A model generated the notes under the pieces. The model was not told where the DNA came from, searched no databases, and worked only from the letters and a program-made list of their open reading frames with translations. DNA of 64,000 nucleotides from Chlorokybus atmophyticus (lineage: Eukaryota > Plantae > Mesostigma and Chlorokybus algae): the NCBI GenBank assembly GCA_009103225.1, contig RHPI01002990.1, forward strand, positions 109,034-173,033. Reading direction: 5' to 3'. Numbering within the stretch: position 1 is the first letter of the stretch; the number at the start of each line of letters is the position of its first letter. Shown in pieces: positions 18,179 through 52,091 of the stretch. A program made the translations under genes and the position numbers.

Positions 18179-18210
<32 letters not shown>

Positions 18211-21469: not shown

Positions 21470-23272
21470 GCAGGATGTGCAAAGAACGCGAATGCGGCTG
21501 ACGAAGATGATGGCAAACTGCAATGTGAGCATGTGGATAAAGGTTACAATAGTAATAATGTGTTACCTTGCCACCGGTGTTGCAAAGGGCCTCCAAGCCG
21601 CTTTCAATCCCGCCGAGCAGCTTCAGCAAGGTGATGCCTTGTTGGCGTCGCGCTGCACCAAAGTCCACGACTCTGGTGGCGACGGTAAATTGTTCTGCAA
21701 TAGGAACATTCTCGTAGTCGTCTAAAATGCAAATAGTGAGATTGCATGGTGGTTGTTGATCAACCATGTGAGTACTTGAGCCCATTCCCGGGGCTGCGAT
21801 GTGGTCGCAGCATCCCTTTGAGTGTGGCGCCTTCGAAACCTTGTTATTGCAACATTCTTTCAAAGGCATTGTGCATCAGGCGTGTGTGCAACCGCTGCTC
21901 CCCATGCGTTTGCTGACCAGGCCACTGAGGGTGTGCTCCTTGTTCAAGATACCCCTTCCATAGTTGGCGCTGGTTTGCTGGCCAGTTATTGGTCATATTG
22001 ACGCCGAGGGCAGCGATTTCCCCCTTGAAAAATCTGCTCAACGCCTTCGTTTGAGGAAGCATGCTGCGCTCCCAGTCCTCGTCGGTTGGGTGCTGTGGTC
22101 TGTTCACTCAAATGTTGCCATAAGCTTCAGCGCGGGCGTCATTGATGACAACACTAGGTGGCGCTTTCTCGATGTCCCGCTGCAGATCTTCTTAGTTTTG
22201 CTCGCGGCGGCGGACCACGTATTCTTGCTGTTAATGAAAGTGACGAGCCTGATCTAGCGCGTAGAAGCGGCGACACTGCTCACGCCATGAGCACGTAGCC
22301 AATTTTGGATCGCTGCCCAGCGAACCAGCAGCAAATGCTCTTAACAGTTGAACCATCTCCAAGTCTAGGCCGTCGAAGTGATCCAGGTTAGATGGCTCTT
22401 GATCGGGTGAGGGCAGCATTGGGGGATGCTATGGAGCCAACCGATGACGATTTAACAGGTCCCAAAACATGGTGAGGGTCTCGTCGATGATGCGAAGGGT
22501 GCGGCAGTCGTGGCCCAGCTCCTGGCGGTGGAGAGGGCATTGTTTACACCATGTAGAATGGCATTCTCATCAACGCTACATAAACCGGTCCCCCCCAATG
22601 TGCGCAGGTGTGATGGGCATGTGTGTGGTGGACGTATTGGCTCATATCTAAGCCAAGGGGAAAGAAGTTGCTGGCACCTCGGCTGCGGCGGTTGTGGACG
22701 AGGAGGGCCCTGCTCCTATGGTAGCCATGGTAGTCGTGGATGGTTTGGCCATGGTGGTTTCCAAGGCAGGCGTGCTGGCTTGGGTGGTAGCTACAGCGCG
22801 TGATGGCTAAGCTGTAGTGTCATTAGCGGCGATGTTTGCTGCCGATGAGGTTGCTGCAGCAAACTCGGCAGCGAGGACAGTTGAGGTCGCAGCGATGGTG
22901 CCGCAAGACTTTCAGTGATGGCGGCTGCAGCTGCTGTCGTTGCTGCTTGTGTTGCAGCAACTATTGTGGGGTCGGCAAAAGCTTCCACCGACGCAAAATG
23001 CAACTCCGAGGCATCAGCAGTGGCAGATGATGAAGCCGTTGTTGTTGCTGCTATTGTCGCCGGTTGGCCAGCAGAACCAGTTGCGCCACTTGTCGTGGAT
23101 GGGTCGGCGTCCTCTCGAGCACGTCGTGGTGGTTGTATGCGAGTTGGCGGAAAGACTTCTGTAAACTTCACTCCCATTGCTATCTACCTTGCTGTGTGAC
23201 ACGCGTGGTACTCCTCTTCCCTACCCTTCAGCATCACGTGAATTTCGTTCATCCGTGCTCTGAGAGCCGCAT
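21470..23272 (-). pseudogene. Internally deleted remnant of a second, divergent DNMT-Ty3 element (pre-protease domain plus DNMT N-terminus)
   Basis: RRQQGITLLKLLGGIESGLEALCNTGGKVTHYYYC matches 43.7 kb RRQQGITVLELFGGIGSDLAAVLNTGATLTKYFYC. QTKAL..GEIAAL..NQR..KGYL matches 45.6 kb QTRAL..GVIAPL..DQR..RGYL. Confidence 0.8.
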
Positions 23273-29792: not shown

Positions 29793-29817
29793 ATACAATC
29801 TGAAGTAAGAGTAAGCA

Positions 29818-29849
<32 letters not shown>

Positions 29850-32800
29850 TATGATTAATAACATTTAATTCATGCAAGTTGGTTGCCATGCGGCCTTAAG
29901 CAGCAGCAGGGTTGTTGCAATGGGTAGATAATAGGTCAAGCAGCGGCATGCCATCCACTTGAAGATGGTGCCGAGCTTCAGCAATACTGATGGTATAGTC
30001 CGCAACTGGCTGACCATGACGATGATGATGGCTCAAGTGCCGTCAACAAGTTCAGAATTTTCATGTGCGCATCTGATGGAAAAAATCGTGATACCTCATG
30101 TCTAATGACAATACAAATGCATGCCGAGTTGTGAACAATACCGCGCTATTGACATCAAACTATGACTTTTTATAAGCGATTAATATGATGGATTACATTA
30201 TATAGTTGGCCAAGCTAAGAGATGATACGGCAATTAAAAACGTGTGTGTATTGATGCAAATTGCCTCAACAAGTCAATGACAAATTGCGAGGAAACGGTT
30301 TTTATACTCAGTACACCCTTTGTGTTATTGCCCATGGGTGGGGGCTTGGAAAACTATAAACCTCATCAAAACCTCCACATGTAATTGCCTTCTGCTCACA
30401 TGGCCTAGCGCTAGGCCATGTGCTGATGGAAAATGCTTAATGTTGGAGTTTGACATGGTGGAGGAAGGTCCTTTCTTAAATGCTACATTAGAAATAAATC
30501 TTTGTTCAAGGGTCATTGTCCTCACCTCCTAATGGTGCTAGCATGGAGCTGTGACGGAAGAGAAGGCGAGAATTGAAGCTACACCAAGCCTTGAAGGGAA
30601 TAATGCACAACATTTAAGAACTCAGCAATGCAAAGTTTCGCATTTGCAATCCAAGTTTGACAATTGTTGAATTTACTTTAACGTTTTCACTAAGTTAGCA
30701 AAGCCATATCAGCTTCTTATGCTTCAAAGTTAACCACTTGAGTTGCTTGAAAAGCCCTACGTATGACGCAAGTGCTGCATAAATGTCACGATTTTATTGG
30801 TAGTATACTTCAAGTGTGTTGAAAGGATGGGAGAAAAGCTGTTCTTTATGAACGAGCAATGGGTTGAAAGATTCACAACACTTACCAGTGCGTACGTGCG
30901 CAGGTGTAAAAACTATATGGCAGCATGAGCTTAAAATTATTTAGAGTCGTCCTCAATTGTCCACCCCAAGTGCACAATCAACAAAAAAACAACAACAACA
31001 TTATATATATATATATACATATGAGGCTGACGCTTAGTATTCTTGTAAACCGATATAAGCAACAAATGTGCAAGATTGTAAGTCAATTGACTCAGTACAT
31101 GAATGCAATTGCAATTTGGTAAGCATTGATCCAAAATACTCAATATAGTATCAGTCCGTATAGTATAATATACACTTATGCATACGGTTATGCAAGGTCA
31201 TTTGCAGCATTTGTATAGCCTAATTAAAATAATTAAACTGTTAAAAATATTGCAGCATTGAGTGTTCCAATAGTCAGAAGCGCGTCGTATTGCTCACATT
31301 GAGTGGGAAGAACATAAGTTCTACTCGGTCGCTTACAAGCTCCTTGTCATTCAGCGTCTTGAATTGTTATGAAAAATTAGGCATATTTATCAAACCGTAA
31401 CATCCGTCACAAAGCTAGTTCTAAGGTGTATGCACTTTATAGAAAGTAAACCAATAGGTTGACCGATGGTGCTGATGATTATTAGGTCAATAATTACGGG
31501 GTTATGTGCTGGTGAAGTTGCAAGTGTTGTGAGTGATATAAGGTACCAGCGACTGTCCATGGTGACATAATGCGTGAGAGTTCTGATCGCACTATGGCAA
31601 ATATGTTGGCAGAAACTAGTTTGTAATGTGGGACCAACCTGCTGTGATGTCACTTACAAAAAGGTGGTTTGAACCCAAGTGCCTACCATGAGGAAAGCAG
31701 CTAAGAGAAAGAGACGTGAGGTTTCATTCCAGTGAAGCCTTGGACGAATTGATCATAAGCTCTCCTTGGCCCACTTCACTGTCATGATTCGAGCATTTCC
31801 AATTGTAAGTAGGGACCAATCCAAGATGGTAACAATGTGATTGAATTAAGTGATGAGTCATCATTCGGTTGTGAGGACGGTGCTGGAGGTGTTTAGAACA
31901 ATGCATCAGGTAAAACTCATTACCACATTTGTGCGGGCGCGCTCCTCCAAGCATAGCTCATGTGTGCAAGCTGACCAGCACGGTTGTTGCAAGCTTTCAT
32001 GGTGCGGAATTGTTAGAAGGAGCGAAGGATTCCCCGAAAGATTGGGCTTTGGTATAATTATAAGGGCGCAAAATTATATTGCATTATACGTTGATCAAAA
32101 GTGAATCAATTAGTGAGCATTAGGGCTGAGTAGTTATCAATTAATTTGATGCTGTTAGTGGAAACATAAAATTCCCTTGCGATCATTGGAGTCCGCGGCC
32201 ATAAGTGAGAGCGTTTGAGTCGAGAAATTTTCGGGAAGTCATACAAGTCCCAAGTTCTTAGCTTCCGCTTGTACGCATACTGTCGGGTCGAGGGGAGTCA
32301 AGGGTCACACTGTCTCGGGCCGCTACAAGAAGAGACATGCTGGCTAGCCCTGTCGCTGCAACATGTTATAACATGTTGCAACAGTAAAAGATAACTCAGC
32401 TCGTATGACGAGGAGTGCTTGGTGGAGCTGTTCCGCTGCCGCTGGGTCACATGGACATGCGGAGGCGGTGTCCTCCTTAGTGTACATGCTGTGCTGTAGG
32501 ACACATAGTCAACAAGCCACTACTATAGGTAGTGCTCTTTACACAGTTCTTTGCATGAGCGGAACATGTGTCACACTGTTAAGTGAGGTGAATGAGCAAG
32601 CAACACGTGGATACTATGCTCTGACGGATGCCAACAAACACACTGTAACCAGGCACACCAAGCTCACAGTGATGACGAGCATGATGCACACACCAGCATG
32701 CACATGCTCTCACACAGTGAGGGGGTTCTTGGTAATCGGGATGGCGTGTTCGCAGTTCAAGTCGTTTCACAAGCTCTTAGCTTTCTCACTCACAGTGTCA

Positions 32801-32929
32801 CCAGCTGATCCGGTGAACACTATGACTACTTATACAAGTCAAGTCATGACTGACTGAGAACATAAGCTAACGGTCATATCGAGGCTATTTCCACAGCGAT
32901 TGTCACTCGATATAGAACACAACTTATAA
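29791..32929 (+). repeat. Duplicated block B copy 2
   Basis: Joins block A at a 2-bp TG microhomology (29791-29792). Confidence 0.95.
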
Positions 32930-33428
32930 GTGAACTCACAACTGAGCAGCTACGCGCGATGCCTATGTAGGCTATGTTCGTGAGCTACTCTGAAGTCATG
33001 GCCTAGCTACTAGGCCGCGACGCGCGCGCGCTGGTATGCTGGTAGGCCGGGCGATGGTTTTGATGTAGCCATGCTCGATGAAGGCTGGTATGCATGGGCA
33101 GTAGACATGACAGCTGTCGGGTCGAGGGGAGTCGACGGTCACACTGTCTCGGGCCGCTACAGGAAGAGACATGCTTGCTAGCCCTGTCGCTGCAACATGT
33201 TATAACATGTAGCAACAGTAAAAGATAACCCAGCTCATATGGCGAGGAGTGCTTGGTGGAGCTGTTCCGCTGCCGATGAGTCACACGGACATGTGGAGGC
33301 GGTGTCCTCCTTAATGTACATGCTGTGCTGTAGGACACATAGTCAACAAGCCACCCCCCCTGAGCTTCTGGGGAGGTTCCAGCTCCAGAGCTCAGCTATT
33401 AACGCAGGTGAGGAGGACCGTTGGTGCG

Positions 33429-33563
33429 GCAATCGTCGCACCAGTACTCCTCCATGGGTATTGCGTCCAATGGGGGCTCCATCCAGTAGCAATGCAGGCC
33501 CTTGTTGCACACATCGCAGAGCATCATGAGTGCGTCGTCGCCGGCACTGCCTCAGCGCTCACA
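33429..33563 (-). pseudogene. PHD finger at the integrase C-terminus (two Cys lost)
   Basis: CER*GSAGDDALMMLCDVCNKGLHCYWMEPPLDAIPMEEYWCDDC fits C4HC3 spacing, with the 2nd Cys codon now TGA and the Cys after His now TGG. Confidence 0.85.
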
Positions 33564-34337
33564 ACGTGTGCTACGGGCGGGGCGAGGGTGCTGAATGCGC
33601 GCGAAGCCCGCTATGTAAGGGAGGTGACATGGCACGCAGTTCACCATGTTGTCTTTCAACCTCTCGCCATTCTGACCAAGGAGGTCCAGCACTCCTGTGG
33701 GGTACACCTTGAGTACCTTGTAGACGGTGTGGCCCACGGAGGTGTCGAGCGTGTCCTTGGTGGCCGCCATGCAATAGGCAAAGTCCCCTGCTTAAAATTG
33801 CCGTTGGCGCTCCTTGTAGAAGCCGCTCCGCAAGCGCTCGTAGCGCAGGGTGTCGCGGTGCTGTGCGATGCGCAGGATGTTGAAGGCCATCAGGACGGTG
33901 TGCTCGAACAGCGTGGCGCGTGTGGTAATGTCGTCGTGCATCCAGGCGGGATCGTCGAGGTTGTTTACACGGTCTACTTCCTGCTGTGCACGAAAAGGAA
34001 GCAACGGCGGACGTCCAAACAGCAGGGCTGTACTCGCGCAGAGCCGCCTGCTTTGACAATCGGTAACCCAGAGCCACCCATGGAAGGTGGTCGTCCCAGG
34101 TGTTCTTCTCATACTCCAGCACGTACTTGCGGAGTGCCTTTTTTATAGTCTGTACTGTCCGCTCGGCGAGACGGTCGGCTTGAGGGTGGTCAAGCAAAGT
34201 ACGGCGATGATCGATGTAGCATCTGTTCAGCAGGGTGTCGAACTCCCCTCTGAACTTAGTGCCCTGGTCGGTGATGACCTCAGCGCAGCTGCCGAACAGG
34301 CTGAGGACATGGGAGAGGAAGGCTTGAGACCCCCCCC

Positions 34338-34389
<52 letters not shown>

Positions 34390-34835
34390 NACCAGGATGT
34401 AGCGGTTGCCCTGTGCCGAGGGTGCCAAGTCTCCCAAGATGTCGAGTCCCCAGCGATAGAACAGCCCAGAGCTGGGGAGAGGGTGCAAGGTGGCGCTGTG
34501 TGTGTTGAGGCTGGCGCGTATCATGTCACACTGCTGGCAGCGACTGACGAACCCCTGCACCTGTTTGGACAGTCTATACCACCAATATTGCGCCCTTACC
34601 AGGCTAACGGTACGCTTGACACTGAAGTGTCCAAGCTCATTGTGGAGGGCAGCAATGATGCCCTCGCGTGTGGCTGGTGTTGGCACCTCTTTGTCCTCGT
34701 CCTGGACGTGGCGGTACACCTTGTCATCCGCCCACCGATAGTGGCGGGTGCGCTGACTGACACAATCTTTCTCTCGTGCACTCATATTGGAGGGAAGCTG
34801 GCCACTTTGAAGGAAGAAGAGTAATGGCTTGTCCA
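33564..34835 (-). pseudogene. Integrase of the DNMT-Ty3 element
   Basis: LHNELGHF, CQQCD, RWGLDILG, VITDQGTKF, HPQADRLAERTVQTIK; interrupted by a poly-C/N artefact at ~34330-34390. Confidence 0.92.
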
Positions 34836-34843
34836 GCCGTATG

Positions 34844-37706
34844 CACAGTCACATAGTAAGCGACTTTTAGCCAAAAAGTACGTAAAAATACGCGTATATG
34901 CAGCGGTTGTCCAAAGTACGTTGAAAGTACGGTCAATCGTACGTTAATTATAATATATATGATGTTTTCTGCTATGTTAAGGTACTTAACGTCTTACGAG
35001 CAGAAGTTAAGCTAGTTAAGGCGGCTTGACTCACTACCTAAAGAAATTAGGGTTTGTCTGGCAGGGCGTCAGCTGCGGCGTCAGCTACGGCGGTGGTTGT
35101 GGCGACCATATTGTCGTCAACAGCGGCGTGATCCTCAATGGAAGGGGCTGGTCATCTGCTAGTGCACTTGGACGCAACATTAAACAAGTAAGTTTAGTGT
35201 GGCACGCATCAACAAGCAATTCTGAGCATGCACACACATGTTGTAAGCACATTAATGTTGCGTGCACTGTGAATGAAACACTCAAAGCACTTGACAAACA
35301 GTAGTGAGCTACGTGTGGCTTGCATGACAGGCCAAAATGAAGGGGCCTGAGTGGAAGCATGTGAAGATTCTTGAGCAAAAACAGCACCGCGATCGCGAGG
35401 TTGAATGCGTGTACTGTGAGCACACTTGGTGTGGAGGTGTTGCTCGCATTCGAGCTCACCTTTTGGGCCAAGCAGGCGTCTCCAAGTGCAAGTCCTCCTG
35501 ACGCTGTAGTTGCTAAACTCTCCATTGTTGTCAAGGAGAAAGAGAAGGCAGTTGACAGGAAACGCAAGTTGAAATTGCTTGATCAACTGACTGCTTTTAA
35601 CAGTGCCAGTTCTGGTGGTGCTAGTTGCTCAACTGTGGTCTTAGACAGCACGCAACCTACACTAAGAAAGAGCTATGCCCGTGGTGACAAAGGCCATGTT
35701 GATGCAGGCATTGCTCGTTTCTTCTATAGTAATGGCATGTCATTCAACATCGCGCGTTCACCATACTACACGGAAGCATTCAAGGCTGCTGCGGCTTTTG
35801 GGCCCTCATACATTCCGCCATCCTCGGAGATGCTGCATAAGAAGTTGTTGGAGAGCGAGTGGACTACAGTCAACACTCGACTGAGTGATGTGCGCTCATC
35901 ATGGGAGGCTACAGGCTGCACAATTACGAGTGATGGTTGGTCCGACGCACGCAACCATCCATTGCTCAATGTTCTGGTGATGTCGCCAAAAGGAGAGGTG
36001 TTTGTGAGGGCTGTCAACACTGAGGGGGAAGAGAAGAATGCTTCTTACATTGCCGCGCAGTTGATAACGGCAATTGAAGAGGTCAGTGCATGTGACTGTG
36101 CAGTTGTGGTCAAGCAGCACTGGCATGTGCTGATGCTTGCGCGTGTGTGAGCATATGTAGCATGCGTCATCTGCAGGATGCACATGCTTCTTGAGCAGTC
36201 GGAAAGAGTTACTTAGTTGTGCTTGTATACATGTAGGTTGGATGCAAGAAGGTTGTGCAGAATGTGACGGACAATGCTTCAAGTTGCGTAGCTGCTGCGC
36301 GCTTGGTGGTGGCCAAATACCCGCACATTACTTGGACGGGCTGCACTGCGCACTGCCTGGACTTGTTGCTTGAACACTTCGGCCGCTTGTTACTGGTTTC
36401 GGATGTTGTAACCAATGGCAAGCGCGTGGTCAAGTTTGTCACGAACCATCATCGGAGTCTTGCTATCTTCAGATCTAAGTCAGAGTTGAAGCTGCTCAAG
36501 CCGGGAGACACACGATTTGCAACATCGTTCATAACATTGCAGCGCGTGAGTGAAGTGCAGGATGCATTAACAGAGTGTGTGGCTTCAAGGGAGTGGTCAA
36601 CATGGGCAGACAAGTCCACTCATGGCGACGAGGCCGAGGAAGTGCGTGCCTTGGTGCTCTCCCCAACATTCTGGTGCAGCATAGGCCTCGTCACCACCAT
36701 GGTTGAGCCCATTGTGCGTCTGCTACGCTTGGTAAACGGCCCCTCTCCGACCAGCGGCAAAGTTTATGCGTTCATGGCTGGAGAGGAGTTGAAAGCCATG
36801 ACGGGGCTGACTGCCACACAAAAGAAGAGTGTGGTGGAGTGCTGGAAGTCGCGGTGGGCGATGCAACACAGTGACATGCATGCTACTGGCTACTTACTTG
36901 ACCCCAAGTAAAGGCACCACGAGCAGCAAACCAACGACAAAGTAATGCATGGCTTGTGCAATATGCTCCACAAATTGCTTGAGGACGATGACAAGGTGGA
37001 TGCGGCCATGACACATGTATGCTCACAATGCTATGCTACTTCAAGTCTTGCAGTGTTGCCCGATACATGTACCTAAGTGTACATATGCATGCTTACACGA
37101 ATAAGGATGGGCTGTTTGGGAGGGAGGCAGTGCAAAGAGCTGCAACAAACATGTCAGCACATGCATGGTGGAGAATGTATGGAGGAAGTGTTCCGGAGCT
37201 GCAATTTATTGCGGTGCGTGTGCTTGCACAGGTCTCTTCAGCATGTAGCTGCGAGCGGAACCGGAGTTCTTATGACTTCGTTCACACGAAGAAGCGCAAT
37301 CGCTTGCACCCTTCACGCGCGGAGAAGTTCGTGAACGTCTTCACAAGCCTGCGGCTGTTGAAGAAGATTCAGAACCCTGCATATGAGGAGCAGTTTGTGC
37401 AGTGGGAGTCGGATAGTGATGTATCTGTAAAGTCAGAGCAGGAGGATGAGTGAGTTTTAGCAAGGGTAGTGAGTACTAGCAAGGGTGTAGTGTAATAACA
37501 GACTTGGCAGCTTGTTGACCTCTAATGATGGGATGGTTCTCGTGTTAGCATGCATACCACATCCTTGTGCATGCTACTACAAGTTGCTAACAATGTTGGC
37601 CTAACATGGCATAGAAGCAAGCTCATGCTTACGTACTGGCCTACGTACTGACAAACATGTACGAAAAAGTACGCGTATTTTGCATACTGCGTTCTGTGTG
37701 ACTATG
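34844..37706 (+). mobile_element. hAT DNA transposon 1 (defective)
   Basis: TIRs CACAGTCACATAG / CTGTGTGACTATG; 8-bp TSD GCCGTATG / GCCATATG (1 mismatch); removal restores host pol DIW-LDKPLL. Confidence 0.93.
35337..37453 (+). pseudogene. hAT transposase (BED finger, DDE core, dimerization domain); frameshift near 35490, stop at 36909
   Basis: CVYC..W....RIRAHL, TITSDGWSD, VTDNAS, CTAHCLDL, SACSCER; intron 36082-36236; probable intron 37017-37084. Confidence 0.92.
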
Positions 37707-39272
37707 GCCATATGTCCTGCCTGGTGTCGGTGGGTGCCAGCTCGGTGTCATCGACTTCGATGTCGACAGCGTGGACCTCCCCTAGGGGTGTGGTCATTGT
37801 GGGGTGGGTAGACTTAAGAGCAGGAATCTCCTCTGTCGTTGAGGTGGTGTTGATCCGGCGCCCTGACTGTAATGCGGCAACAGCAAACATGGCCACGGTG
37901 GGAGCTGCTGCTGCGGGGCCGAGCTCATGCCAAGCTCCAGTTGCATCGTTGGTGCTGCGGTGAGGGTTGCAACTAAGGCCATCAGCGTCCTGGTTAGTGA
38001 GGCCGGCGCGGTTGTCAATCTCGAAGTCATACTCCTGCAGCAACAGAGCCCAGCGAACAAGTTTCCCTGTCAAATGTTGGTTGGTCATCAACCACTTGAG
38101 TGGCTGATGATCGGTGATCAGCTGGAATTGTCGACCAAAGAGGAAAGGTCTGAGAAGGAGATAGCCCATACTGCAGCGAGGAACTCCCCCTCGTAGCTGC
38201 TGTAGTTGGCCTCAGCGCTGTTGTTGCTTCGGCTGGCGTACGACACCACCCGCTCCTTCTTATTCTCATCGTGCTGTACCAGCACAGCCCCCATCCCAAG
38301 CTTGCTCCAGTCGGTGTGGAGGATGAAGGGCTTGTTGTAGTCAGGACGTTGCAGGATGGGAGCGGTGGTGAGCCTGCCCTTTAGCTCGTCAAACGCCTGC
38401 TGTTGTGGCTCCTTCCACGCAAACTCCACCTACTTCTTCAGTAGCTCGTTGAGGGGTCGCGCGATCTTTGCAAACTCCTTCACGAACCGGCAATAGTAGT
38501 TGGCAAGGCCCAAAAAGGCACGCAGACGCGTAAGGTTTGTGGGAGCAGGGATAGCCGCCAAAGCCTCCACCTTTGCCTGTTGTACGTACACACCGTGGGG
38601 CACAATTATGTGCTCTAGGTAGGGTACCTTGCGAGTGAAGAAGGTGCACTTGTCGGGTGCACTTTCATCCCCACCCCCTTAAGTCTTTCCAGCACTTCCT
38701 TGATGTGCTGCAGGTGCTCGTCGTTACTGCGACTGAAGATGAGAATGTCGTCAATGTAGCATCGCGCGAAGTCCAGCCCCTCCAAGGCTTTGTCCATGAC
38801 GCGCTGGAATTTGGCAGGAGCGTTCTTCAGTCCGAAGGGCATGACCTTCCACGGGTACAGCTGCCGGTTGCCCCAGAAAGAGGTCTTGTGCTTGTCCTCC
38901 TCCTTGGCGATCTGGTTGTACCCTTGTCGCATATCCAAGATGCTGAAGACGATGCAGTCTCCTACATCATGAAAGATACCCTCTGCAGTAGGCATTGGAT
39001 ACTTGTCTTGTTTGGTCTTGTTGTTGACGGGGCGATAGTCGCCGCACATGCGCTGGTCTGTCCAATTGCCTGCTGAATTCTTCTTCAGGGGCATGACGGT
39101 CGCGGCCGAAGTCCGATATGGACTCCTCAATCAGGCCTGCACCTAGCAGAGCTTTGCACCTCTGCTCCACCAAGTCTTCTTTCAACTTGAAGAGTCGGTA
39201 CTGTCGTCGAAACACCGGTTCGGTGTCCACCAACTCGATGTCCATGTGGTAAACTGAGCAAACACCCGATTC
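37707..39272 (-). pseudogene. RT and RNase H of the DNMT-Ty3 element
   Basis: MCGDYRPVN, MPFGLKNAP, CYIDDILIF, LHTDWSKLGMGAVL, NYSSYEGE, LITDHQPLKWL. Confidence 0.95.
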
Positions 39273-39728
39273 CATGGTCACAAGGTACGCGACTTTTAGA
39301 CCAATAGTACGCGTTTGGACGCGTACAGAGACCCCGCGTACCTAATACGCAGTCTGTACGCAGTCTGTACGCCAGTGTAACTGGGTTACGCTCCAGTTAC
39401 GCTGAGATACAGCTTAGCACTGTATCTCAACCGTAACTGGTTAGTCTAGTGTAACTAGGCGGCGGTGCAGGCAACATAGTTGGCGGCAGCGGCGGCGTTA
39501 GCGGCGGCAGGCAGGTGGGAACGGCGCTCCTTTAGCTGCAAGCTTCATCTCTCAAGCTACTGTAGCTGCGCCTGATAGCCATTAGCTACAAGGTGTGTGC
39601 GTGGGTATGCACTGGTTGCCCGCATGCTTGGCTATGCGCCCATCATACATCATGCAGCCTGCAAGTCATACCATCAACGTGCTATATGTGATTTGCATGT
39701 GTTCATAATAGTGTTTGTTTATGTTAGA

Positions 39729-42247
39729 ATGACGCAAAGTGCGCTGTGGAAGCACGTCGACATAATAGAGAGAAAGCCTCATGGCAACTTTCGTGTGAGG
39801 TGTGTTTATTGCGAGCACGAGTGGACAGGAAGTGTTTCACGTATTGGTGCCCATCTGAGTGGTGAACGTGGAGTCACCAAGTGCACAACCCCTCCCGAGG
39901 AGATCGTCTTGCAACTTACACAAGCCAAGAAAGACAAGGAGAAAGAGGGTGAGAAGAGGAGGAGGTTGGACTTGCTAGATCAACTCACATCCGCCATTGG
40001 GGATGCTGGTGCAGGTACTTGAATGCATGCGTGCATGCATTGAAGCTTGGCAAGCAGTGGTGCTGCTCATCACGCATCAAATCAATCACATTGTGCTATA
40101 GATTCAAGCGCCACCGTTCCTTCTAGTCAACAACAAACTCTTGATGCAACTTTCAAGCGTGGGGATAAAGCGCATGTGGATGAAGCCATTGCTCGGTTTT
40201 TCTTCAGCAATGGCATCCCCTTCAACGTGGCAAGGTCCCCTTACTTTATCGCAGCAATGAAAGCGGTTGGCAAGTTTGGCGCTTCATATACCCCTCCCTC
40301 ATCCGAGGCGCTTCGCACAACCTTGTTGGAAAAGGAGTATGCTAGGGTGAATGGCGAACTTGCAGTCATCAAGGACTCAACACGAGAAACCTCATGCACA
40401 ATTGCTAGCGATGGATGGTCGGACACGTCCAACCGTCCATTGTTGAATGTGCTCATGGTGAGTCCTAAAGGAGAAGTTTTTCTTCAAGCAATCAACACGG
40501 AAGGGAAGGAGAAGACGGCGGAGTATGTATCCGAGCAGCTGATCTCCACCATTGATGAAGTAAGTGGTGCACTCGTTCATTGCCATTATAGATTGTGTAC
40601 ACAACCATGCTAAGTAAGACATGCAAGCACTGACTGGCAGCACTTTATGAGCACATGCATCACACGCGCATGCTCATGCTCGCACCCGACACAAGTACGC
40701 ATGCGTGTGACACATGCATGCACTGACTGGCAGCACTTTGTGAGCACATGCATTACACGCGCATGCTCATGCTCGCACACAACACAAGTACTTATGCGTG
40801 TGACACATGCACGCACTGACTGGCAGCACTTTGTGAGCACATGCATCACACACGCATGCTCATACACGCACACAACACAAGTACTTATGTGTGTAACTTG
40901 CAGGTGGGGTCCGCGAATGTGATACAAGTTGTCATGGACAATGCAAGCGTGTGCGTAGCTGCTGCACGTCTGATCACTAGCGAATACCCGCACATCACAT
41001 GGACGCCGTGCACCGCGCATTGCTTGGACTTATTGCTTGAGGATATAGGCAAGTTGGAGTGGGTTAAAAGCGTGGTGGCTGATGGCAAACGCATAGTGAA
41101 GTTCATTACCAACCACCATCGTTCCTTGGCCATCTTCCGCTCCAAAGCCAAGCTAGAGCTGCTCAAGCCAGGTGAAATAGCATGCGTGCATGTGTGTAGT
41201 TAGAGATCAACTTAGTACAAGCGCAAGATTAATGGTAGACAGCAACCATGTGAAATTGCAGCTGATTGCCCGCGCATGCATGCATGCTCATGTCATGCGC
41301 GTGCTTGTTTGCTCATAGCTACTTGTTGTGCAGGAGATACTCGCTTCGCAACGTCATTCATAACTCTTGCAAGGCTAGTCGAGGTCAAAGACGCTCTCGA
41401 CGAGGTGGTGGTGAGCAGGGACTGGAAGGCTTGGGCCGACAAGGGTGTGCATAAGCAAGAAGCTGCTGCAGTCAGAGCGTTGATCTTGGCACCAGATTTC
41501 TGGTCACAAGTGGCATTAGTGAATGCGGTGTCGGCCCCCATCGTGGATCTGCTGCGTTTGGTTGATGGGAACTTGCCCACCATAGGCAAAGTGTACGCCA
41601 AGATGTTTCGTGTTGGCGACCAGCTCAAGCATCTGAAGGGCATGACTGAACAACAACGACTTGATGTGCGCGCCTGTTGGAGGGACAGGTGGATCATGCT
41701 GCATAGTGACATGCATGCAGCAGGCTATGTGCTGGATCCCGAATATTGGGGTCATGAGCAGCACACCAATGAGGAAGTTATGGAAGGCTTTGCAACGATG
41801 GTGGAGAGGGTCCTGCAGTCCCATGACAAGGTTGACTTGGCGTTGCAACAGCTACACATGTACCGAAGTAAGATGGGGCTGTTCGGCAAAGAGGCAGTGC
41901 AACGAGCGGCTCTCACAATGCCCGCGCATGCTTGGTGGCACATGTATGGTGGTAGTGTACCCGAGTTGCAGCAGCTAGCGATGCGCGTGTTGGCTCAACC
42001 ATCATCAGCTTGTAGCTGTGAGAGATCCTGGAGCACGTACGACTTCATCCACTCAAAGAGAAGGAATCGGCTGCAAGCACGCAGGGCAGAGAAGTTGGTG
42101 TTTGTCTTCACCAACTTGAGGCAGCTGAAGAAGATCCACAACCCACATTATGTGCAGGAGTTTGTTGAGTGGGAGGCAGACTCTGATGTGGACGTGTTGT
42201 TTAGTAATGATGATGAGGGGGGCGAGTCTGATGATTACTCGGTGTAA
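39729..42247 (+). CDS. hAT transposase, 4 exons (39729-40014, 40102-40559, 40904-41171, 41334-42247), 641 aa, no stops
   Basis: GT-AG introns with compatible phases; BED finger CVYC..W...AHL; catalytic residues in IASDGW, VMDNAS and SCERSW. Confidence 0.9.
40627..40890 (+). repeat. 93-bp minisatellite, ~2.8 copies, inside hAT2 intron 2
   Basis: GCACTGACTGGCAGCAC at 40627, 40720 and 40813. Confidence 0.95.
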
Positions 42248-42739
42248 CTAGGCAGACACATGTGATGGGCTATGTCTGCACACATGCTTCGCTGTAACAT
42301 AGTGTTCTCTGCTCATTGTTTACTGTTGTGCACATGTACGCAAGTAGCATGCTTGATGCTCGTGAAGCAACACGACAAAACTGCCACTGTAGCGTACTGC
42401 CACGTACTGGCATAAATGGGTACATGTATGTACGCGTACACCACCGCTCACGTACTAAACGCGTACTGTGTACCATGTGACCATGCCCGATTCCCTTACG
42501 CTGAAACTGAACTGACTTCTCCACTTGTTGAGGAGAGCCTCCAGTTGCTCTCGCGTCCGGCCAATAGTCAGTGGTCCAATGGCATGGGACCAAGAGGTAG
42601 CGTTGGCGACCACTGGGATGTCCTCCACAGTGACTGCTGCCTGCTCCTCCATATGGGCGTTTTCGAGGGCGGTGTGTGCCGCTTTGGTCTCTTGCACGCG
42701 ATCGGCCCACCCCCCTGCCAGGTGTTCAAGCTCCTGGAA

Positions 42740-43760
42740 GAACACATGGCAGTCTTGAAGAGCAAAGCACACTTTCAAAACCCATACCATGCTGTTCTGA
42801 TACATGGTGCGTCCCAACCATTGGCATTGCCGATTGTCGGTCAGCGTGGAACCTGTGATACTGCCTTGAGAGAAGCCCATGGCGCGTTCGCGCTCACGTG
42901 CGTTGGGTTCCTCTAGCTGGCCTGTGTTGGAATCCAACACCATGCATGCGCCGTGGTTGCGGAAGGCGTATGATCCCGGGTAAGACACCAGAGTGGGGAG
43001 CGCACGACGTGGTTGACCAGGCTGGTTGCACTGGTAGAAGTGCTGGTGATCGTGTCGGGTGACTGGTTGTGCTGTGCGCCCAGAGTTCACAATAGCGTCG
43101 ACGGTTAGATCGCGTGAACGACTGCTGTGCAGATATTCAGCAGCAAAGAGATCTTCGACTGTTGCCAGGTTGATCCACTTAGCGCGCAGACACGATGAGC
43201 ACGGGAGCCATGCCGCGCTGCGTTAATTCTGTGAGGATGCCTCAGTAAGGAACACACCCGTCGAAAGCTGTTGGCCACGTGATGGCGCTTAGCGTCCTTA
43301 AAGTGCACATTCTCAATGATGTATCCTGGAGGCCTGGACAGCTGGTTGCTCTGCAGAATTTTGATGACCCGCATTAGTTCCCAGAACACTTGTAACCGAG
43401 GATCAGCGAGCCCTTGGTCGCTGCCTGCTCTGGAATGTCCTTGACACTCCCATCCTGCTATCAGCAGGTCGATGTTGCCCACCAAAAGGAGGTGATCCAC
43501 AGTGATTAAATGGATGTCCTGTGGCAGTGCCTTCAGACTGCCTTGCAGTGCCGATAGCGGCAGTCGCTGCGGGTAGCATTTGTGTAGGTGGCGCAGGTGG
43601 TGGCCTAGGGCAATCTGTGCTTGTGGATTAGTGTCACAGTAGAAGTACTTGGTGAGCGTCGCGCCGGTGTTGAGGACAGCGGCGAGGTCACTACCTATTC
43701 CTCCAAATAGTTCCAGCACGGTGATGCCTTGTTGGCGACGGAATACGTGAAATTCCACTA
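42740..43760 (-). pseudogene. C5 cytosine DNA methyltransferase domain inside pol (one frameshift near 43.1 kb)
   Basis: Motif I ELFGGIG (~43695-43715), motif IV GWECQGHS (Cys at 43444-43446), motif VI ENV (43306-43314), GSRAHR, ERERAMGF, LGRTM. C-terminal frame continues into RT across the hAT2 TSD. Confidence 0.92.
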
Positions 43761-43953: not shown

Positions 43954-44480
43954 TTAGTCCGAGTTGTGGGTGACCACCGCAGATGATCTATCAGTGGTTG
44001 TCAAACCCGACACATGGGTGGCTGTCGCAGCTGACCTATTAGTGGTTGCCGACAACGACCTGTAGGTGGCTGTTGCAGCTGACCTCCGGTGGGAACGAGT
44101 GCGAGCCACCAGCTCGAGAGGCAGATATCCTTGAACCTCTCCGTCCTCCTCATCCCAATAAGGACGAAACCAGGCCTTTTCTGTCCAGCAGTCCAGCCCC
44201 ATGCCAACAGGGAAGTTGAAGTTCTGTCCCAACAACAGGTCGAAGGATCCTGCGTCGGTGACCACAACTTCTGTATGACCTCAGTGCTGTGGGACGGGTC
44301 CACTCCTGTCAAGCGAATGCAGAGGGCTTGCTTGGTGATACCGATCACCTTGTCACGGCTGCCGATTGCGGTGTCGAGCACGTATGGGCACGGCATCAGC
44401 TCAGCGCTGGTGATGCCAAGGTCACGTGCGAGGTAACGTCCGATGATGTCAGGGCTCCAGAGTCCAGCATCACCCGCTTG
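43954..44480 (-). pseudogene. Aspartic protease remnant of the DNMT-Ty3 element
   Basis: RVMLDSGA at ~44475-44452; SFDLLLG; frameshifts. Confidence 0.8.
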
Positions 44481-47146
44481 GGTGCTCGCTCATTAATCGT
44501 GACATGCTTGCCTTGGTTGGCGATCATGGTCGCGTTGGCGTGGATGCGCAGCCGCTTGAATCGTCGGTAGCGTGTGCGTGGGGTGTCTGCTGCTGCAGTC
44601 TCCTCCGGTGGTGTCGAGCGCAGTGCGGTAAGCGCCCCTCGACCAGCTGGTTCTTAAGCACCTCCTTGAACGCGGCCTGGCCCGAACCGTCCTTGTTTTG
44701 GGTGTTGATAAACACGCTGTGGCCTGGGTGCTAGCGGTGCTGCCTGCGGCTGCCCTGGTTGCGGCACAGGGGGATTGCGTCTCTATGTGGCCGGGGTCAT
44801 TCCTGGCCGCGTAGCCAGTGGCTGTTGGGGAAACCCTGGAGGACGGGGTGTTTGTGGGCCCGCCTCCCGTGCAGCTTGTTCTTCCACATAAGTTCAGCGT
44901 ACTGCATGAGTTGCCTCCCTGACCAGTGTACCTTCCCATGTGGCTGTTGGGTTGTTGATCGCGTCACTCCAGCGATGATTGTGAGGCATGGGCTGGAGTT
45001 ACACTGCGCGCAGAAGCCGCGCTTTTATGTTGTGGGTGATAATGGGGACCCTTAAGATCTCTGCCATATAGGCATCCCATCTGCCATTGACCACTCCCAC
45101 CTCCAACATCGTTGTTGCTCGCGCCCGCACAGTGAGGTAAATCTCTGGCTGTTGGGCATGCTGCTCGTAGGCAGCTGCGATGCGTCTGCGTTGCCGCGCT
45201 GCTTCTACCCCTGGCAACCTCAGTATGGCCTCTTGTGCTCCTTCTAAGGTGTCAGTGGCTGCCGAGGCAATCTCGTTATAGGCTTGCCGTAGCGAGCGGA
45301 AGAAGACGACCAATTAGAACAACCTGGTGCCGAATGCGAACAGGGGAACTGCGGGGTGATTGGTAATTAGCCAAGTCACTAGTCTTACTCGAGCTGCATT
45401 ACCACCTTCTCGTATCCCCAACATCCGTCTTAGGCCGATGCCTTCTCGTAGGTGCAGCATGGTTGCCTGTCGCAACAAAGCAGTGCGAAGTTGCTTTTTT
45501 CCGATTAAACCTGCTCCATCTCGTTGTGTCCACCCTTGCGGTGTGAGGTAGCCTCTCCCTGGATCCCGTTGATCTTTAGGCAAGTCTTCTAACAAGGCGG
45601 GTAGCAGCGGGGCGATCACCCCCCTAGTTTGTTGGGTCAGCGCCCTCGTCTGGTCAATGTCGGGCCCACCGACGAGAGGTGTTGTACTGGATGATGGGCC
45701 AGCGCTTGTGGGTTGAAGAACGCCAGCGTGAGCATTGGCAAGGGCGCGCGCTCTTGCGTTGATTGCCGCTGCTTGATCATGTCGCCAGGTGAACGCGTGT
45801 TCCAGTGCGGTGTAGCGCTCATGAAGTCGAACGGTATTCAGGGGCCTCAGTGCTTCGTTGTCACCCACAGGCATGTCGGCTATATCAGCAATATGCTGCT
45901 GTACGTTGGGTTGCCGGTCCCAATACGTGTCTTGTGGCTGGGCTTAAAGGGTTCATGACGGATTGGTGCGGGTTTGTGTGGCGCCGTCTGCATATCGTTA
46001 TGCAGAGTCCAAAACCACTGCAGTGCCAGCTCCAGTACAACAGGCGTCTGACAAAGAAGACACGGTCTTGCTTGGGAGGTGCCGTGCCGGCGAGGAATTC
46101 ATCCTCCAGCTGTCGCTGAGTCTGTTCTAACAAGTGTGATATTTAGGCAGAGGGAAGACTCGGTCACTGCGTTCAACGCGTGTTGTGCGCTCCCCTCCGC
46201 GCCCAAAAGCAATGGTAGTGGGATCTGCCCCACGCATGATGGTCTCCCAAGCACACTCAGCTTGCTGACCTCGCGGGACAGCTTCAGTGACGTCGAGGGC
46301 GGGCAATGTAGCTGCGCGTGTTGCTGCGGTGGCAGCAAGCTCAACGATGGCACTGCCATTGGTGGGGAAAGTGCCGCTCAACGGCGCGAGAGTGGTCTCA
46401 ATGCTTGCTGACACAGGTGGCTTTGCCATTGGAGCGGGACAGGCGCGACCTACTGCTGCAGGGTCGGTGACAGTAGTGGCCGCGGCCTGCGTGTTCACCA
46501 GTGTGGGCGTTACGGTGCTCACTGGTATACCACCTTCTGGTGAGATTGGAGCAGTTGCTGCTGACGTTGACGGAGTCGACGTCATAGCCGGTGTAACTGT
46601 TGCTGCTGGTGCAGTACCACTAATGGCTTTAGAGGAGGTGGCTGCTGACGATGTTGCGGCTTCCCCTCGAACTCGTCGGTATGGTTGCATACGCGACGGA
46701 GTGCTGGTGTCTCTCGTGCGCTTTGGAGCCATCAGTGCCCACCGGGCAGAGTAACAGGCGCGGTAGTCCTGCTCCTTGTCTTCCTCCAAGCGTGCCATAC
46801 GCGCCACGAGGGCAGCCATATGGGCAACAGCTGGCGTGTTGGCTGGAGCCTTGGCGGCAACAGCAGCAGCGCGCGGACGTTCTTCCAGTCCCTTACGCTG
46901 AGGAGAGCGATTCTTCCCCCTGTAGCCTTGCTCTTCCTTGCGAGCGTTGGCGTAGTTAGTGGTGTTGTTATCATAACAACACCAATCACAGCAATCACAC
47001 CGGAGGCCATGATGGCCTCCGGTGTGATTGCTGTTGTAGCCACTAGAGTCGTTGCCGTTGTGGCCTCCAATGTTGTTGCTGTTGTAGCCACCCAAGTTGT
47101 TGCCGTTGTAGATGTTAACGGGTCTCAACTCAGGGAACTTGAGCCA

Positions 47147-48320
47147 GCAGACTGAGACCAAGTGGCCTGTCTTGTGACAGTAGTCGCAGATCTGAATTGA
47201 GTACTCTTCACTGCACTCCTTTTTATAGTGCCCATGCCGTCCTCAGTGATGACACAGCACAGGGGCAGGCAAAGCAGTATGCGCTGACAATTTCTCTTTA
47301 TCGCGTGCTGGTGGAGTGTCCCGGCCGCGTGCGCGGCGAGGTGGCTGGACAATTGTGCTGGCTACAGGCCGTGAGGCGCTGCGGTTGGTGTCTAGCACTG
47401 CCTTCTCATACACCAAGCGCTTATGGATGGCTTGTGCGGTCTTAAAAGCTTCCTTGAGCGTGTAGCCAAGGGGTTTGCTGTAGTTCAGGGTCAGGCGCGT
47501 CGACTCGCTTAGAGTAGCATCAAACTCATTGACATATATAACTGCAGCAGCCTCGTCACTGACAATCTTGTAGTCAGTGTCCTTCAACAGACTTTCCAGT
47601 CTGGAGTACAGGCGTAGGGGGTTCCATTGGGCTTGCGCCGGAACCGCCTCAACACCTCCACTTTGCTAATGGGCTGCGGTGGGAAGGTGCAACGAAGTGC
47701 AGCGTACAGATCTTTGAGTGGAGAGTCAGAGATGGCAGCACCTACAGTGATGGCTGGTGCGCGCAGTGCAATTGACCCGAGGGTAAAAGCACTGCCTCTC
47801 GCACGAGAGCCAGGTGTTGCCATAGGTAGGGGCGTGCCCACCTCAACGGATGCAGTTCGTTGTTCTTCAAGGATGGCAGCAGAATGGTCCAGGATCCGCA
47901 CCCGTCGCGCGGCCGTCTTGATCTCAATCTCTGCAGGGGTCAGGTAAACGATCACCAACTCCGGTTCCTCCTCCTCTGCTCTGTCAATGGCTGCCGCTAT
48001 TGACAACCCGATAACTGCAGCGGGAGTGGCAGGTGGAAAGACGATCGCTGGACTGTGCAGTGATGCAGGTGCTATGGTACTGGCGAGCTCGCCATACCCA
48101 TCAACTCGATGCAGTTCAGCAACACACTTCCAGACATCATGGGCTTCATGGTCCAGATACTGAGCAGCAATGTGAAAAGAGATGTCATCTGACCAGTCTT
48201 TGTTCTTCGGAGCCTGCCGTCGCATCTCGGAGTGGAACTTAATGATGAAGTCGTCCAGAGAGGTAGTGCCAGCACGTCCGGAGAAGCTCAGGGACGTGGT
48301 TGAGCTGGAAGACTCCATCT
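47147..48320 (-). pseudogene. gag: gag of the DNMT-Ty3 element with CCHC knuckle
   Basis: FSGRAGTTSLDDFI...YLDHEAHDVW; knuckle CDYCHKTGHLVSVC at 47188-47147. Confidence 0.75.
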
Positions 48321-48370: not shown

Positions 48371-48795
48371 TGTTGAAGGACTAGTATGCACATGTAGTTG
48401 AGGCAAGCATAGACACACAGAGACAGAGCTACCGCCACCAAAGCATACACAAGTCACATCACATTTATCTATTACAAGTTGTCCGCTGGTTCTTATACCA
48501 GCCAGTTACACACACGTCTACGTTTGCAAGTACTGCGTAAGCTATAATCAGCCTTTTAACGCGCTCTAAGTTGCGTTGTCTTTCTTACAACAAGAGCTTT
48601 CCAACAAGCTCTTACACGCCTAATATGAGTAAGTATACGCGGAGATACGAAGCAGTTAGTAAGGCTCCAGTCTGGAGTCCGGAGTCTGGTCCGACGACAC
48701 CATCTTGCTAAGTCCGGACCTAGTGCTCGTCCTTACGACCTTCTACTCCTGTGTGGAGGGTCGATGCTGATCGTATGTAGGAATGACTCTCAACA
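48371..48795 (-). repeat. Copia 3' LTR (425 bp)
   Basis: TGTTGA...TCAACA terminal inverted repeats; partner LTR absent from the window. Confidence 0.8.
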
Positions 48796-51755
48796 CTCCC
48801 ACGCGAGCAGCTTGACCTCCAACGCTTGCTCCTGTAGTCAAACATAGATGCCAAGTCCTGCGCAACAAGTCTTGAACTTGAGCGGTGACAATGGCTTTGT
48901 CATGAAGTCCGCCAGCATGCCCTCAGTGTTGCAGTACTCGAACTCCACCTCCTTCCTTGTGACTCTAGCACGCACAAAGTGATGCATGACATCAATGTGC
49001 TTCGTCCTTGCCGAGGCGATAGGGTGCTTCAACAACTTGATGGCTCCTTGGTTGTCACAGTTGATGACGATGCACGCCATGGGGTGCTCCCAGTCTGCCA
49101 TGAGCTTGCGAAGCCAGAGTGCCTCCTTCACTGCTGCTGCCGCTGCCATGTACTCAGCCACTGATGTAGATGCTGCTGTTGTTGGCTGCAGCCTGCTGTT
49201 CCAGCTCACCACGCCTCCATTCAGCTTGAAGACGTAGCCTGTAGTGGACCTCCTGCTGTTGAGGTCACCAGCAAAGTCCGAGTCGCATTAGCCCTCAAAC
49301 TTAGTGCTCCCGCTCCCAAACTTGATGCCAACTGTTGCGCTCCCAGCAACATAGCGTAGTACTCCCTTTGCTGCTCTCCAGTGCTCCATGCTCGGTGCAG
49401 ACATGTAGCGAGCAAGTACTCCCACAGCATGTGCAACATCGGGACGTGTGCACACTGCCAGATAGAGCATGCTGCCTACCAGCTCACCATATGGATCCCG
49501 AGCCTTGTCGAGTACCTCCTCATCCTTTGCGTTCATGAAGGCAGTGCCAAGTGCCAACGGTGTGGTCTTGATCTTCGCTTCAGTGAGCCCAAACTTGGTG
49601 ACGAGTCTTCTCACCATTTGCTCCTGACTGATCTTGATTGTGCGTGCAGCCCTGTCGTGCTCAATTACCATGCCAAGGAACCACTTGGCCTATCCAAGAT
49701 CACGAACTGAGAATGCTTGCTGTAGAGCAAGTTTCGTCTCCTGCAGGTGGTGCACCTGCCTAGCGGTGATGATGATATCATCAACATACACGAGCAGCCA
49801 GACCTTGTTGTCTGCATGGATGAAGAGCCCAGGGTCTGCAGAGGATGCGGTGAAGCCAAGTGCCTCCAGCTCCTTGGTGAGCTTGATGTGCCACATACGC
49901 GGTGCCTGTCGCAGCCCGTACAGTGCCTTGATCAGCTTGCAACCTGTGCCTCTCTCCCCTTCCTCATATCCAGCTGGTTGCTCGATGAAGGTCTCCTCCT
50001 CCAGCTCTCCGTAGAGGAAGGCGGTCTTCACGTCGAGGTGATGCAGCTTGAGGTCCTCAGCAGCAACCACAGCTAGCAGTGCACGGAAGGTGGTATGCTT
50101 ACTTGCAGGTGCGAACACTTTGTTTAAGTCCACACCTTCCTGCTGCAAGAAGCCCTTTGCCACCAGTCTTGCCTTGTAGCGCTCAATGTTGCCCTGACCA
50201 TCACGCTTCACCTTGAAGACCCATTTCACTGGAATGGTCTTCACTCCTTGCGATAACTGCTCCAGTGACCAAGTGTTGTTGGCATGGAGTGACGCAATCT
50301 CCTCGTCCATAGCACGCTGCCATTGCTCCGCATCCGGTGCTAACAATGCCTCCTCGTAGGTGCTTGGCTCCTCATTGTGCACACTGGCGACGTGTGCCTT
50401 GTGTAAAAAGTCAGGTGCCTTTCTCTCCTCATTGGGTATCTCCGAGCTGCGTGCTCCTGCAGCAGGTGCGGCTCCTCCTGGCCTGCTACAGCTGAGTCCT
50501 GCTCACCCTTAATGTCGATGATGGCCTTGCCTGCAACTCCCTCTTTCGTAGGAAGTTCCTCCGGCTGTGCTTCATCTTCATCTCGAGGAAAGAAGCCTGC
50601 TTCTGGTTGTAATAATCCCTTGTGGAAAACCACCTCTCTGCTCAAGATGATCTTCTGAGTGTCCTCGAGCAAGATCCTGTAAGCTTTGGAACCCGGTTCA
50701 TAGCCAACGAAGATGCCCTTCTTGCTGACCGGCTCCAGCTTGTGTCTGAGATGTTTAGGCACTAGTGCATATGCCGTGCATCCAAACACACGCATACCAC
50801 TCACATCTGGTGTGGCTCCATAGAAGTGCTCCCACGGAGTCTTCTGCTCTGAGCTCACCGGAGACCTGTTACGGATGTAGTTGGCAGTGAGTACCGCCTC
50901 CTTCCACAGACTGTCTTCCATCCTTGTGTCGTTGAGCATGGCTCGAACACGCTCCAAGAGTGTCCTGTTGAGGCGTTCAGCTGCTCCATTCTGCTGCGGG
51001 GTGTAGGGTGCCGTTGTCTCGTGGCGTATGCCCTTGCTGGCGAAAAACTCCTTCAACTCCTTGTTGATGTACTCCCCTCCTCGGTCACTCCTCATTGCCT
51101 TCATCTTGTTGCTAGACTGCGTCTCCAACAAGGCCACAACGGTGCGCCCAGCTCTAGCAACTTCTGACTTGAGCGTTATTGGGAAGATGATAAACAGCTT
51201 GCTGTAGTCGTTGAGGAATGCAGCAAAGTACCTGACCCCTCCCTTCGCCACAATGCGCATAGGGCCACAGACATCCATGTGCACAAGCTCGCAAGGATGC
51301 TGACTGCTAGAAGAGGATGATGGGAATGGCATAGCATGCTGCTTTGCAACCAGGCATGGTTCACAAAGTGCACCTGATGCATTCTTGAGTTCTTCTGTGC
51401 TGAGATGGATGCTCTTGACCATCTTCTCAGCGACAAGGCGAGTGAGGTTGACGTAGCCGAGATGCCCGAACCTTCGATGCCACAATGTTGGCGACTCCTT
51501 GTCCTTCACCACTATGGCTTGAATGTCAATGTCCTTAGGGTGCTGCTCCACGTGGTAGAGCCCTCCCGAATCAGCGATTCCAACCATGTGCACGACCCCA
51601 TCAAGGATGACTATGCAGCCACCCTTCCAAAATAGGATCTCCGCGCCTAAGCGCTCCGCACTTGGTAACACACTACGCAAGGTGTTGTTACGTAACGTCC
51701 TGCATGTTCCTAAGGCTATTGCGAGTCTATTCTCTGTGAGGGTTGCGGAGCGCTT
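48371..51755 (-). mobile_element. 5'-truncated Ty1/Copia retrotransposon (IN-RT-RH plus 3' LTR)
   Basis: WHRRFGH, ELVHMDVCGP, RSDRGGEY, PQQNGAAER, YKARLVAKG, VYVDDII, CDNQGA..TKHIDV; PPT GCGTGGGAG before the LTR. Confidence 0.96.
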
Positions 51756-51829
51756 GCACCATGTATGGCCCGGCCAAGTTGTTCGTGTCAGGACCAGGTA
51801 GCGACCGGGCAGCAGACCAGGGACCAAAT

Positions 51830-52091
51830 CATAAAATCATGAAAATTTAATCATCCCTAATTTGGCCAACGGACAATGAATCGAAACTTTTACGAATACC
51901 AATTGAGAGTAAATGCCTCAATAGTGGCCTGATCTTGTGTTTACGGTACCAAGCCCCTACGGGCCGTAGGCTACAGCGCACGAGGTCGCGGCCTTTTTGA
52001 AATGATTCATTAAAATTACAAGCATTCACAAAAATTTGAACCTACGACCTCTAGCTATGAAACGACGCCCTAACCACTAAGCCACAAGTGC
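51830..52091 (-). mobile_element. tRNA-derived SINE-like element or tRNA pseudogene
   Basis: 52091-52022 reads GCACTTG TGGCTTAGTGG (A box) ...TTCATAG... AGGTC GTAGGTTCAAAT (B box), about tRNA length with broken stems; followed by a ~190-nt body and an AT-rich tail. Confidence 0.6.

Follow-up and report, generated by a model that had tools for sequence, protein, structure and literature searches.

A dead Ty3/Gypsy retrotransposon of Chlorokybus atmophyticus with a DNMT3-like methyltransferase domain between protease and reverse transcriptase

Why would a transposon carry a silencing enzyme? The question is raised by a 64,000-nt stretch of Chlorokybus atmophyticus DNA (contig RHPI01002990.1; the window, below), in which a preliminary description made from the letters alone had placed a C5 cytosine DNA methyltransferase (DNMT) in the pol of a Ty3/Gypsy element, between protease (PR) and reverse transcriptase (RT). 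Chlorokybus is by its taxonomy an early-branching streptophyte alga, and one host gene in the window (60430-61425) matches EukProt entry jgi/Chlat1/2887 at 100% identity, Chlat1 denoting the Chlorokybus genome. On the minus strand we read, in order, a gag-like region, PR, DNMT, RT, RNase H (RH), integrase (INT) and a PHD finger. The element is a dead, broken Ty3/Gypsy copy, and we compared it with P0011, an ENA protein of 2300 aa in one open frame that has the same domain order and is collinear with the window from PR to PHD finger.

The methyltransferase domain lies at 42770..43740 of the minus strand and was matched to PF00145 in a Pfam search of the window ORFs (E 2.6e-10, 40.7 bits, cut-off 22), so the profile check that had been proposed for it returned a DNA_methylase hit. 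All of the motifs named in the preliminary description were present on that strand where it had put them: motif I, ELFGGIG, at 43713-43693; motif IV, AGWECQGHS, with the Glu codon at 43449-43447 and the catalytic Cys codon at 43446-43444; motif VI, ENV, at 43314-43306; the motif VIII-like GSRAHR, ending near 43192; and ERERAMGF, which is motif IX, at 42895-42872. A motif-X-like WLGRTM follows at 42820-42803. The copy is indeed frameshifted, as had been claimed; a break near 43190 splits motif VIII and leaves ERERAMGF in the next frame, and the copy has several more frameshifts and stops besides. The C-terminal piece of the domain had no Pfam match on its own and aligned to P0011 at 42%, and the window domain as a whole was 43% identical to that of P0011 over 322 columns. 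When a family profile was compared with the PDB, DNMT3C, DNMT3A and DNMT3B scored best (E 1e-19 to 4e-18), ahead of DRM (2e-12) and HhaI (3e-9); with the N-terminal half of the window domain alone, HaeIII came slightly above DNMT3, both matches being weak. With the P0011 domain modelled by AlphaFold (pLDDT 87.8), each of the 30 Foldseek matches listed was a DNMT3, with a TM-score of about 0.69. By profile and predicted fold, and with its motifs in unrearranged order, the domain is thus DNMT3-like and belongs with the Dnmt3 group.

The preliminary description had also noted that the catalytic Cys was kept while the Pro before it had become Glu, and both halves of that observation stood. DNMT3 and bacterial enzymes have Pro, not Glu, in motif IV. 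Among 93 homologues, in an alignment from which 7 of 103 rows had been dropped for short or split domains, the residue before the Cys was Glu in 47, Pro in 38, another residue in 5 and a gap in 3, so the exchange is a trait of the family and not decay. On a tree of 45 rows the Glu/Pro label switches at least three times. The Glu-Cys homologues keep the Cys and EN in 47 of 47 and RxR and the motif I Gly in 46 each; for the 38 Pro-Cys homologues the corresponding counts are 38, 37, 36 and 36. In the alignment, catalytic residues other than the Glu or Pro itself are equally well kept in the two types. The window copy retains motif I, Cys, ENV and RxR and departs at motif IV (Pro to Glu) and at motif X, where it has Tyr in place of the Asp found in 85 of 93 homologues.

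The remaining parts of the element vary in how well they are preserved. The broken gag-like region (46130..48318, minus strand) has Cys/His knuckles, and its start, MESSSS...FSGRAGTTSLDDFI, resembles by eye the P0011 start FSGRRGTLPLTDFI; it had no Pfam match and no tblastn match to the P0011 gag, so the assignment is weak. A 5'-truncated Ty1/Copia element lies beyond it at 48371-51840, its 3' LTR (48795-48371, recognised by TGTTG...CAACA ends) abutting gag and ending 53 bp before the gag start. The aspartic protease (44100..44490, minus strand) is frameshifted and lies upstream of the DNMT, with MLDSGA at about 44470; its C-terminal half aligns to P0011 residues 711-770 at 30%. RT and RNase H, likewise frameshifted, were recognised at 37945..39264 of the minus strand (RVT_1 E 3e-24, RT_RNaseH_2 E 2.5e-31) and are 55-56% identical to P0011. 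The DDE integrase and C-terminal PHD finger lie at 33400..34835 of the same strand (Integrase_H2C2 E 1e-13), collinear with P0011 residues 1817-2299, the integrase being 45% identical. A run of G with an internal N at 34324-34389, inside the integrase core, is probably an assembly artefact. The PHD finger of the window (about 33570-33420) has a stop in place of one Cys codon and as a separate piece had no Pfam or PDB match; that of P0011 matches PF00628. In 70 of 82 sequences the finger has Gly, not Trp, two places before the His, and a PHD finger of that kind would be expected to read histone H3 with unmethylated K4.

Two hAT DNA transposons interrupt pol. The first (39273..42485, plus strand; zf-BED, DUF659 and hAT dimerisation domains; 10-bp terminal repeats CATGGTCACA) separates RT from the DNMT-RT linker (42494..42769, minus strand), which is in frame with the DNMT C-terminus. 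It is flanked by an 8-bp target duplication (42493-42486 and 39272-39265), and once it is removed the flanks read SVRES|GVCSVYHMDIEL, so the frame runs straight into RT as had been proposed. Logan contigs from runs X1 and X2, which belong to two studies, join 39260 to 42501 with no hAT between them, and the X2 contig extends back to 42818, into motif X. Contigs of both runs also join 34835 to 37707 across the second hAT (34836..37706, plus strand), which sits between RNase H and integrase; versions without either hAT therefore exist. Read depth in run contigs is not a measure of copy number, and domains were not ranked by it; no RNA run was among the holders listed in the sequencing-run search. 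The first hAT seems to hold introns and has a 93-bp tandem repeat at 40614-40897; it shows 1-3 differences over 1.5-1.7 kb from contigs of both runs and so looks like a member of a young family.

The arrangement is not peculiar to this copy. P0011 and a second intact relative, P0146, keep the DNMT in pol, and of the 80 loci fetched, 67 have RT downstream of the DNMT (12 were too short and 1 had another layout), the search pattern for these loci favouring a DNMT-then-RT layout. Spacing between the two domains is near-constant, about 440-560 bp in most loci. As the preliminary description had it, the DNMT lies between PR and RT, and because it is collinear with both in the open pol of P0011, with the window copy read through its breaks, it is not a separate insertion. 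The linkers that flank it are only 21% and 27% identical between window and P0011.

A second member of the element's family, a diverged remnant, occurs in the window at 21470..23270 of the minus strand, with the N-terminal part of the DNMT at 21700-21498. The two copies are 66% identical in DNA over 185 bp, and their 62 differences fall 16, 11 and 35 times on first, second and third codon positions. Between loci L001 and L002 we calculated dN 0.031 and dS 0.26 (dN/dS about 0.12); L009 and L011 gave a weaker signal (dN 0.018, dS 0.051, dN/dS about 0.35). By codon positions and dN/dS, the DNMT domain is under purifying selection. Other Ty3/Gypsy elements in the window, at 143-3300, 5445-6263 and 12000-16840, had no DNMT match, and two of them served as outgroups.

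Links between DNMTs and RTs are reportedly treated by Iyer and colleagues in 2011. The preliminary description had pointed, correctly, to de Mendoza et al. 2018 (PMC5890265), whose text describes KnitGypsy-Dnmt3 of Klebsormidium nitens, a Dnmt3-type DNMT in a Gypsy pol with DIRS-like repeats. We take the K. nitens protein KFL_009030040 to be a copy of it, and this protein has the order PR-DNMT-RT-RH-INT. On that account the window element is of the same kind and its design is already published: both have an intronless Dnmt3-type domain in a Gypsy pol of that order, purifying selection and a streptophyte algal host. They differ in that the window element has Chlorokybus as host and Glu-Cys instead of Pro-Cys, and its DNMT is 36-41% identical to that of KFL_009030040. 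The Chlorokybus element has a C-terminal PHD finger; in the K. nitens protein, which is partial, and in the text of PMC5890265 none was seen.

Other known systems are less close. SymbioDIRS-Dnmt3 of Symbiodinium, as the text of PMC5890265 describes it, shares a Dnmt3-type domain in the RT ORF and repeats ordered A-coding-B-A-B; it has the tyrosine recombinase of DIRS elements and a dinoflagellate host, whereas the Chlorokybus element has a DDE integrase and its relatives have 4-bp target duplications. By Pfam, Integrase_H2C2 and rve domains were found in the element and P0011, in place of the tyrosine recombinase that marks DIRS. The accessible text of bioRxiv 10.64898/2026.05.21.726589, which names "streptophytes (Gypsy-DNMT3)", describes EpiLTRs of Cymbomonas and Euglena that likewise are LTR retrotransposons whose pol includes a cytosine methyltransferase and differ in having DAM, a chromodomain and a DNMT4-sister domain; neither DAM nor a chromodomain was matched by Pfam in the element ORFs or P0011, and the best DNMT match was to DNMT3 rather than to a DNMT4 sister. 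Gypsy-7a_cRei of Chlamydomonas, compared by description only, is a green-algal Gypsy polyprotein with a PHD finger and, unlike the window element, no methyltransferase among the domains in its legend (PMC9940879). What we add is the presence of DNMT-Gypsy elements in Chlorokybus, Mesostigma, Closterium and a liverwort, Glu-Cys as a family trait, a chlorophyte layout and, in relatives, TG...CA ends with 4-bp duplications around the split repeats. Our literature search found no paper on the Chlorokybus copy, the chlorophyte layout or Glu-Cys, and the figures and main supplement of PMC5890265 may show domain order, PHD or motif IV.

The ends of the element bear on how it integrated. In the window the 3' end, on the minus strand, reads polypurine tract, B, A, B. 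Repeat B1 (241 bp, 33114..33354) directly follows a G-run polypurine tract and ends CGACA, repeat A (593 bp, 32521..33113) begins TGTCATG as in relatives, and repeat B2 (32280..32520), 94.6% identical to B1, forms the 3' end. No 5' copy of A was found within the 64-kb window, so only relatives show the split repeats in full; the repeats of KnitGypsy-Dnmt3 are described as DIRS-like, A-coding-B-A-B (PMC5890265). A 20-bp match between the pre-gag region and repeat B was discarded as not significant, 7 of 100 shuffles being as good. A segmental duplication of about 97% identity (4006-8378 with 18152-21469, and 25397-33113) takes in both repeat A and repeat B2 together with 2.5 kb of flanking sequence and breaks exactly at the start of A.

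Loci L011, L017, L032 and L057 have the full A-coding-B-A-B pattern. We scored 27 fetched loci with a PHD finger after the DNMT, 4 of which were too short; of the other 23, 3 showed A-coding-B-A-B, 3 B at both ends only, 2 a 5' A only and 15 neither, three unrelated tandem repeats being counted as neither. L057 was too short in this scoring and showed the full pattern in the other repeat analysis. In the window and the relatives examined, A starts TGTCATG and B ends CGACA. Target duplications of 4 bp flank four of the five loci in which both ends were read (L011, L017, L028 and L057, not L032), so that with TG...CA termini the ends are of integrase type. The internal CA-NN-TG is present in the split-repeat loci (L011:5090-14414, L017:4728-14400, L057:5319-14533 and L028), and the window has it where B1 meets A, in a form that resembles a circle junction. 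No TGG primer site followed the 5' repeat in the four loci read. L045, which has the chlorophyte layout, had no repeats, so split repeats are seen only outside that branch. A two-LTR circle, with an LTR made of B plus A, would yield split repeats if it were cut at the internal CA-NN-TG junction, and from the repeat sequences we infer integration from such a circle cut inside the LTR. Programs that look for LTRs would probably miss elements with such split repeats.

We searched 1.84 billion representatives and obtained 377 hits at E up to 1e-10. We examined 231 proteins: the DNMT lies between PR and RT in 16 (layout A) and between RNase H and integrase in 136 (layout B); another 78 were too short to tell and 1 had no hit. 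The named members with layout A are streptophytes, Klebsormidium KFL_009030040 and Closterium; Mesostigma and Calypogeia proteins have, by eye, protease-like sequence upstream of the DNMT and fall in the A group of the DNMT tree. Named layout-B members are chlorophytes: Tetradesmus (P0040, a complete transcript ORF), Cymbomonas and Pleodorina, in which the DNMT is degenerate. The large chlorophyte-side lineage reads RT-RH-DNMT-INT-PHD (P0040, P0091, P0021, P0030 and others; L045:648-5090). P0116 (2529 aa) matches query residues 55-105 in 23 stretches, owing either to repeat expansion or to an assembly artefact, and P0057, a layout-B element filed at NCBI under a bacterial MAG, is probably eukaryotic contamination. 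No relatives were found in viral contigs.

Trees were built after 54 of 231 proteins, and 13 of 92 RT-bearing proteins, had been dropped for short or split domains. Support in the DNMT tree was 90/88 for the A group and 81/80 for the B group. In the RT tree it was 81/69 for A, 100/99 for B and 100/99 for A and B together against P0234 and five true DNMT-less RTs; L034, L051 and L064 are pieces of DNMT-linked elements split by insertions. The window element is not placed as sister to the K. nitens element; it shares the broad A group with it, at moderate support, in both trees, and a shared clade of the two was not rejected (AU p 0.435). P0234 and P0108 have the chlorophyte layout yet belong to neither group in the DNMT tree, nor does P0234 in the RT tree, and Haematococcus P0088, with no RT match, falls in the chlorophyte DNMT group. 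In chlorophytes there is a sister lineage with the DNMT shifted to a place between RNase H and integrase, and the unity of A and B against this small outgroup makes one ancient capture of the DNMT likely. We offer a wider scheme tentatively, as possible rather than probable: DNMT3-Gypsy would be one ancient green-plant lineage that predates the chlorophyte-streptophyte split, combines a DNMT with a PHD reader, holds the DNMT in a different slot in each branch and tolerates the Glu, its streptophyte branch integrating by DDE integrase from a permuted two-LTR circle and leaving split repeats.

What, then, would the enzyme have done? The reading we prefer, and think fairly probable, is that this dead Ty3/Gypsy copy with a DNMT3-type methyltransferase between PR and RT descends from a live element that methylated its own new DNA copy. 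Made and packaged with RT and integrase, the DNMT would come into contact with the cDNA inside the particle or the integration complex. There it would methylate CG de novo, by analogy with the SymbioDIRS DNMT3-type domains, which methylate CG in yeast and are the only such domains shown active according to the text of PMC5890265. The PHD finger would read histone H3 unmethylated at K4 and steer integration to silent chromatin. Copies that arrive already methylated would be taken for host DNA or would remain quiet. The position of the domain in pol, its retained catalytic residues and the selection on it together point to a likely cDNA-methylating enzyme delivered with RT and integrase. Against it stand the non-canonical Glu, the K. 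nitens Gypsy DNMT domain, which showed no activity in yeast, a result its authors call inconclusive in the text of PMC5890265, and the absence of extra CpG loss. CpG observed/expected was 0.70-0.77 in the element, 0.73 in the neighbouring hATs, 0.55 in Copia, the lowest measured, and 0.75 and 0.93 in two DNMT-less Gypsies, the element being below only the latter; as a mark of self-methylation, no CpG depletion was seen in the element relative to the neighbouring hATs and Copia.

These same three points would fit a domain that is conserved yet does not methylate, or has an altered chemistry: it might bind or flip cytosines of the cDNA, or act as a decoy for host DNMT3, the Glu-Cys of half the homologues marking the shift. 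We consider this unlikely, given that Glu-Cys members retain Cys, EN, RxR and the motif I Gly no less often than Pro-Cys members do; moreover, with Pro-Cys in the K. nitens protein P0100, the Glu need not explain the yeast result. An enzyme active on chromosomal DNA that, once the element is integrated, methylates the element's repeats or the site of insertion and thereby limits transposition would fit a PHD finger that ties pol to chromatin, and slowed transposition is an option raised in the text of de Mendoza et al. (PMC5890265); the place of the DNMT beside RT points instead to the particle stage, and no observation here points to methylation spreading into the flanks, which makes this account quite improbable in our view. 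That the DNMT entered by an insertion of its own, or is a host gene captured in this one copy, might be suspected in a nest of two hATs and a Copia element and is extremely improbable, being contradicted by the in-frame fusion in open, collinear relatives such as P0011, the contigs joined in two runs and the steady DNMT-RT spacing, and by the lack of an intron and of DUF3444 (PF11926, absent by Pfam from the window ORFs and P0011, present in P0111), unlike the stand-alone streptophyte host DNMT3 gene with its C-terminal DUF3444 (PMC6453930).

For cDNA self-methylation, as for its alternatives, the merit of following up lies in the wider pattern, the window locus itself being a dead copy. Transposon pieces may account for some of the gene models called "DNMT3" in these genomes. 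The known range of such elements widens from one alga to early streptophytes, a liverwort and chlorophytes, and P0011 and P0146, with Glu-Cys, and P0040, with Pro-Cys, are intact natural candidates that between them cover both pol layouts and both active-site types, which makes it possible to test why a transposon carries a silencing enzyme.
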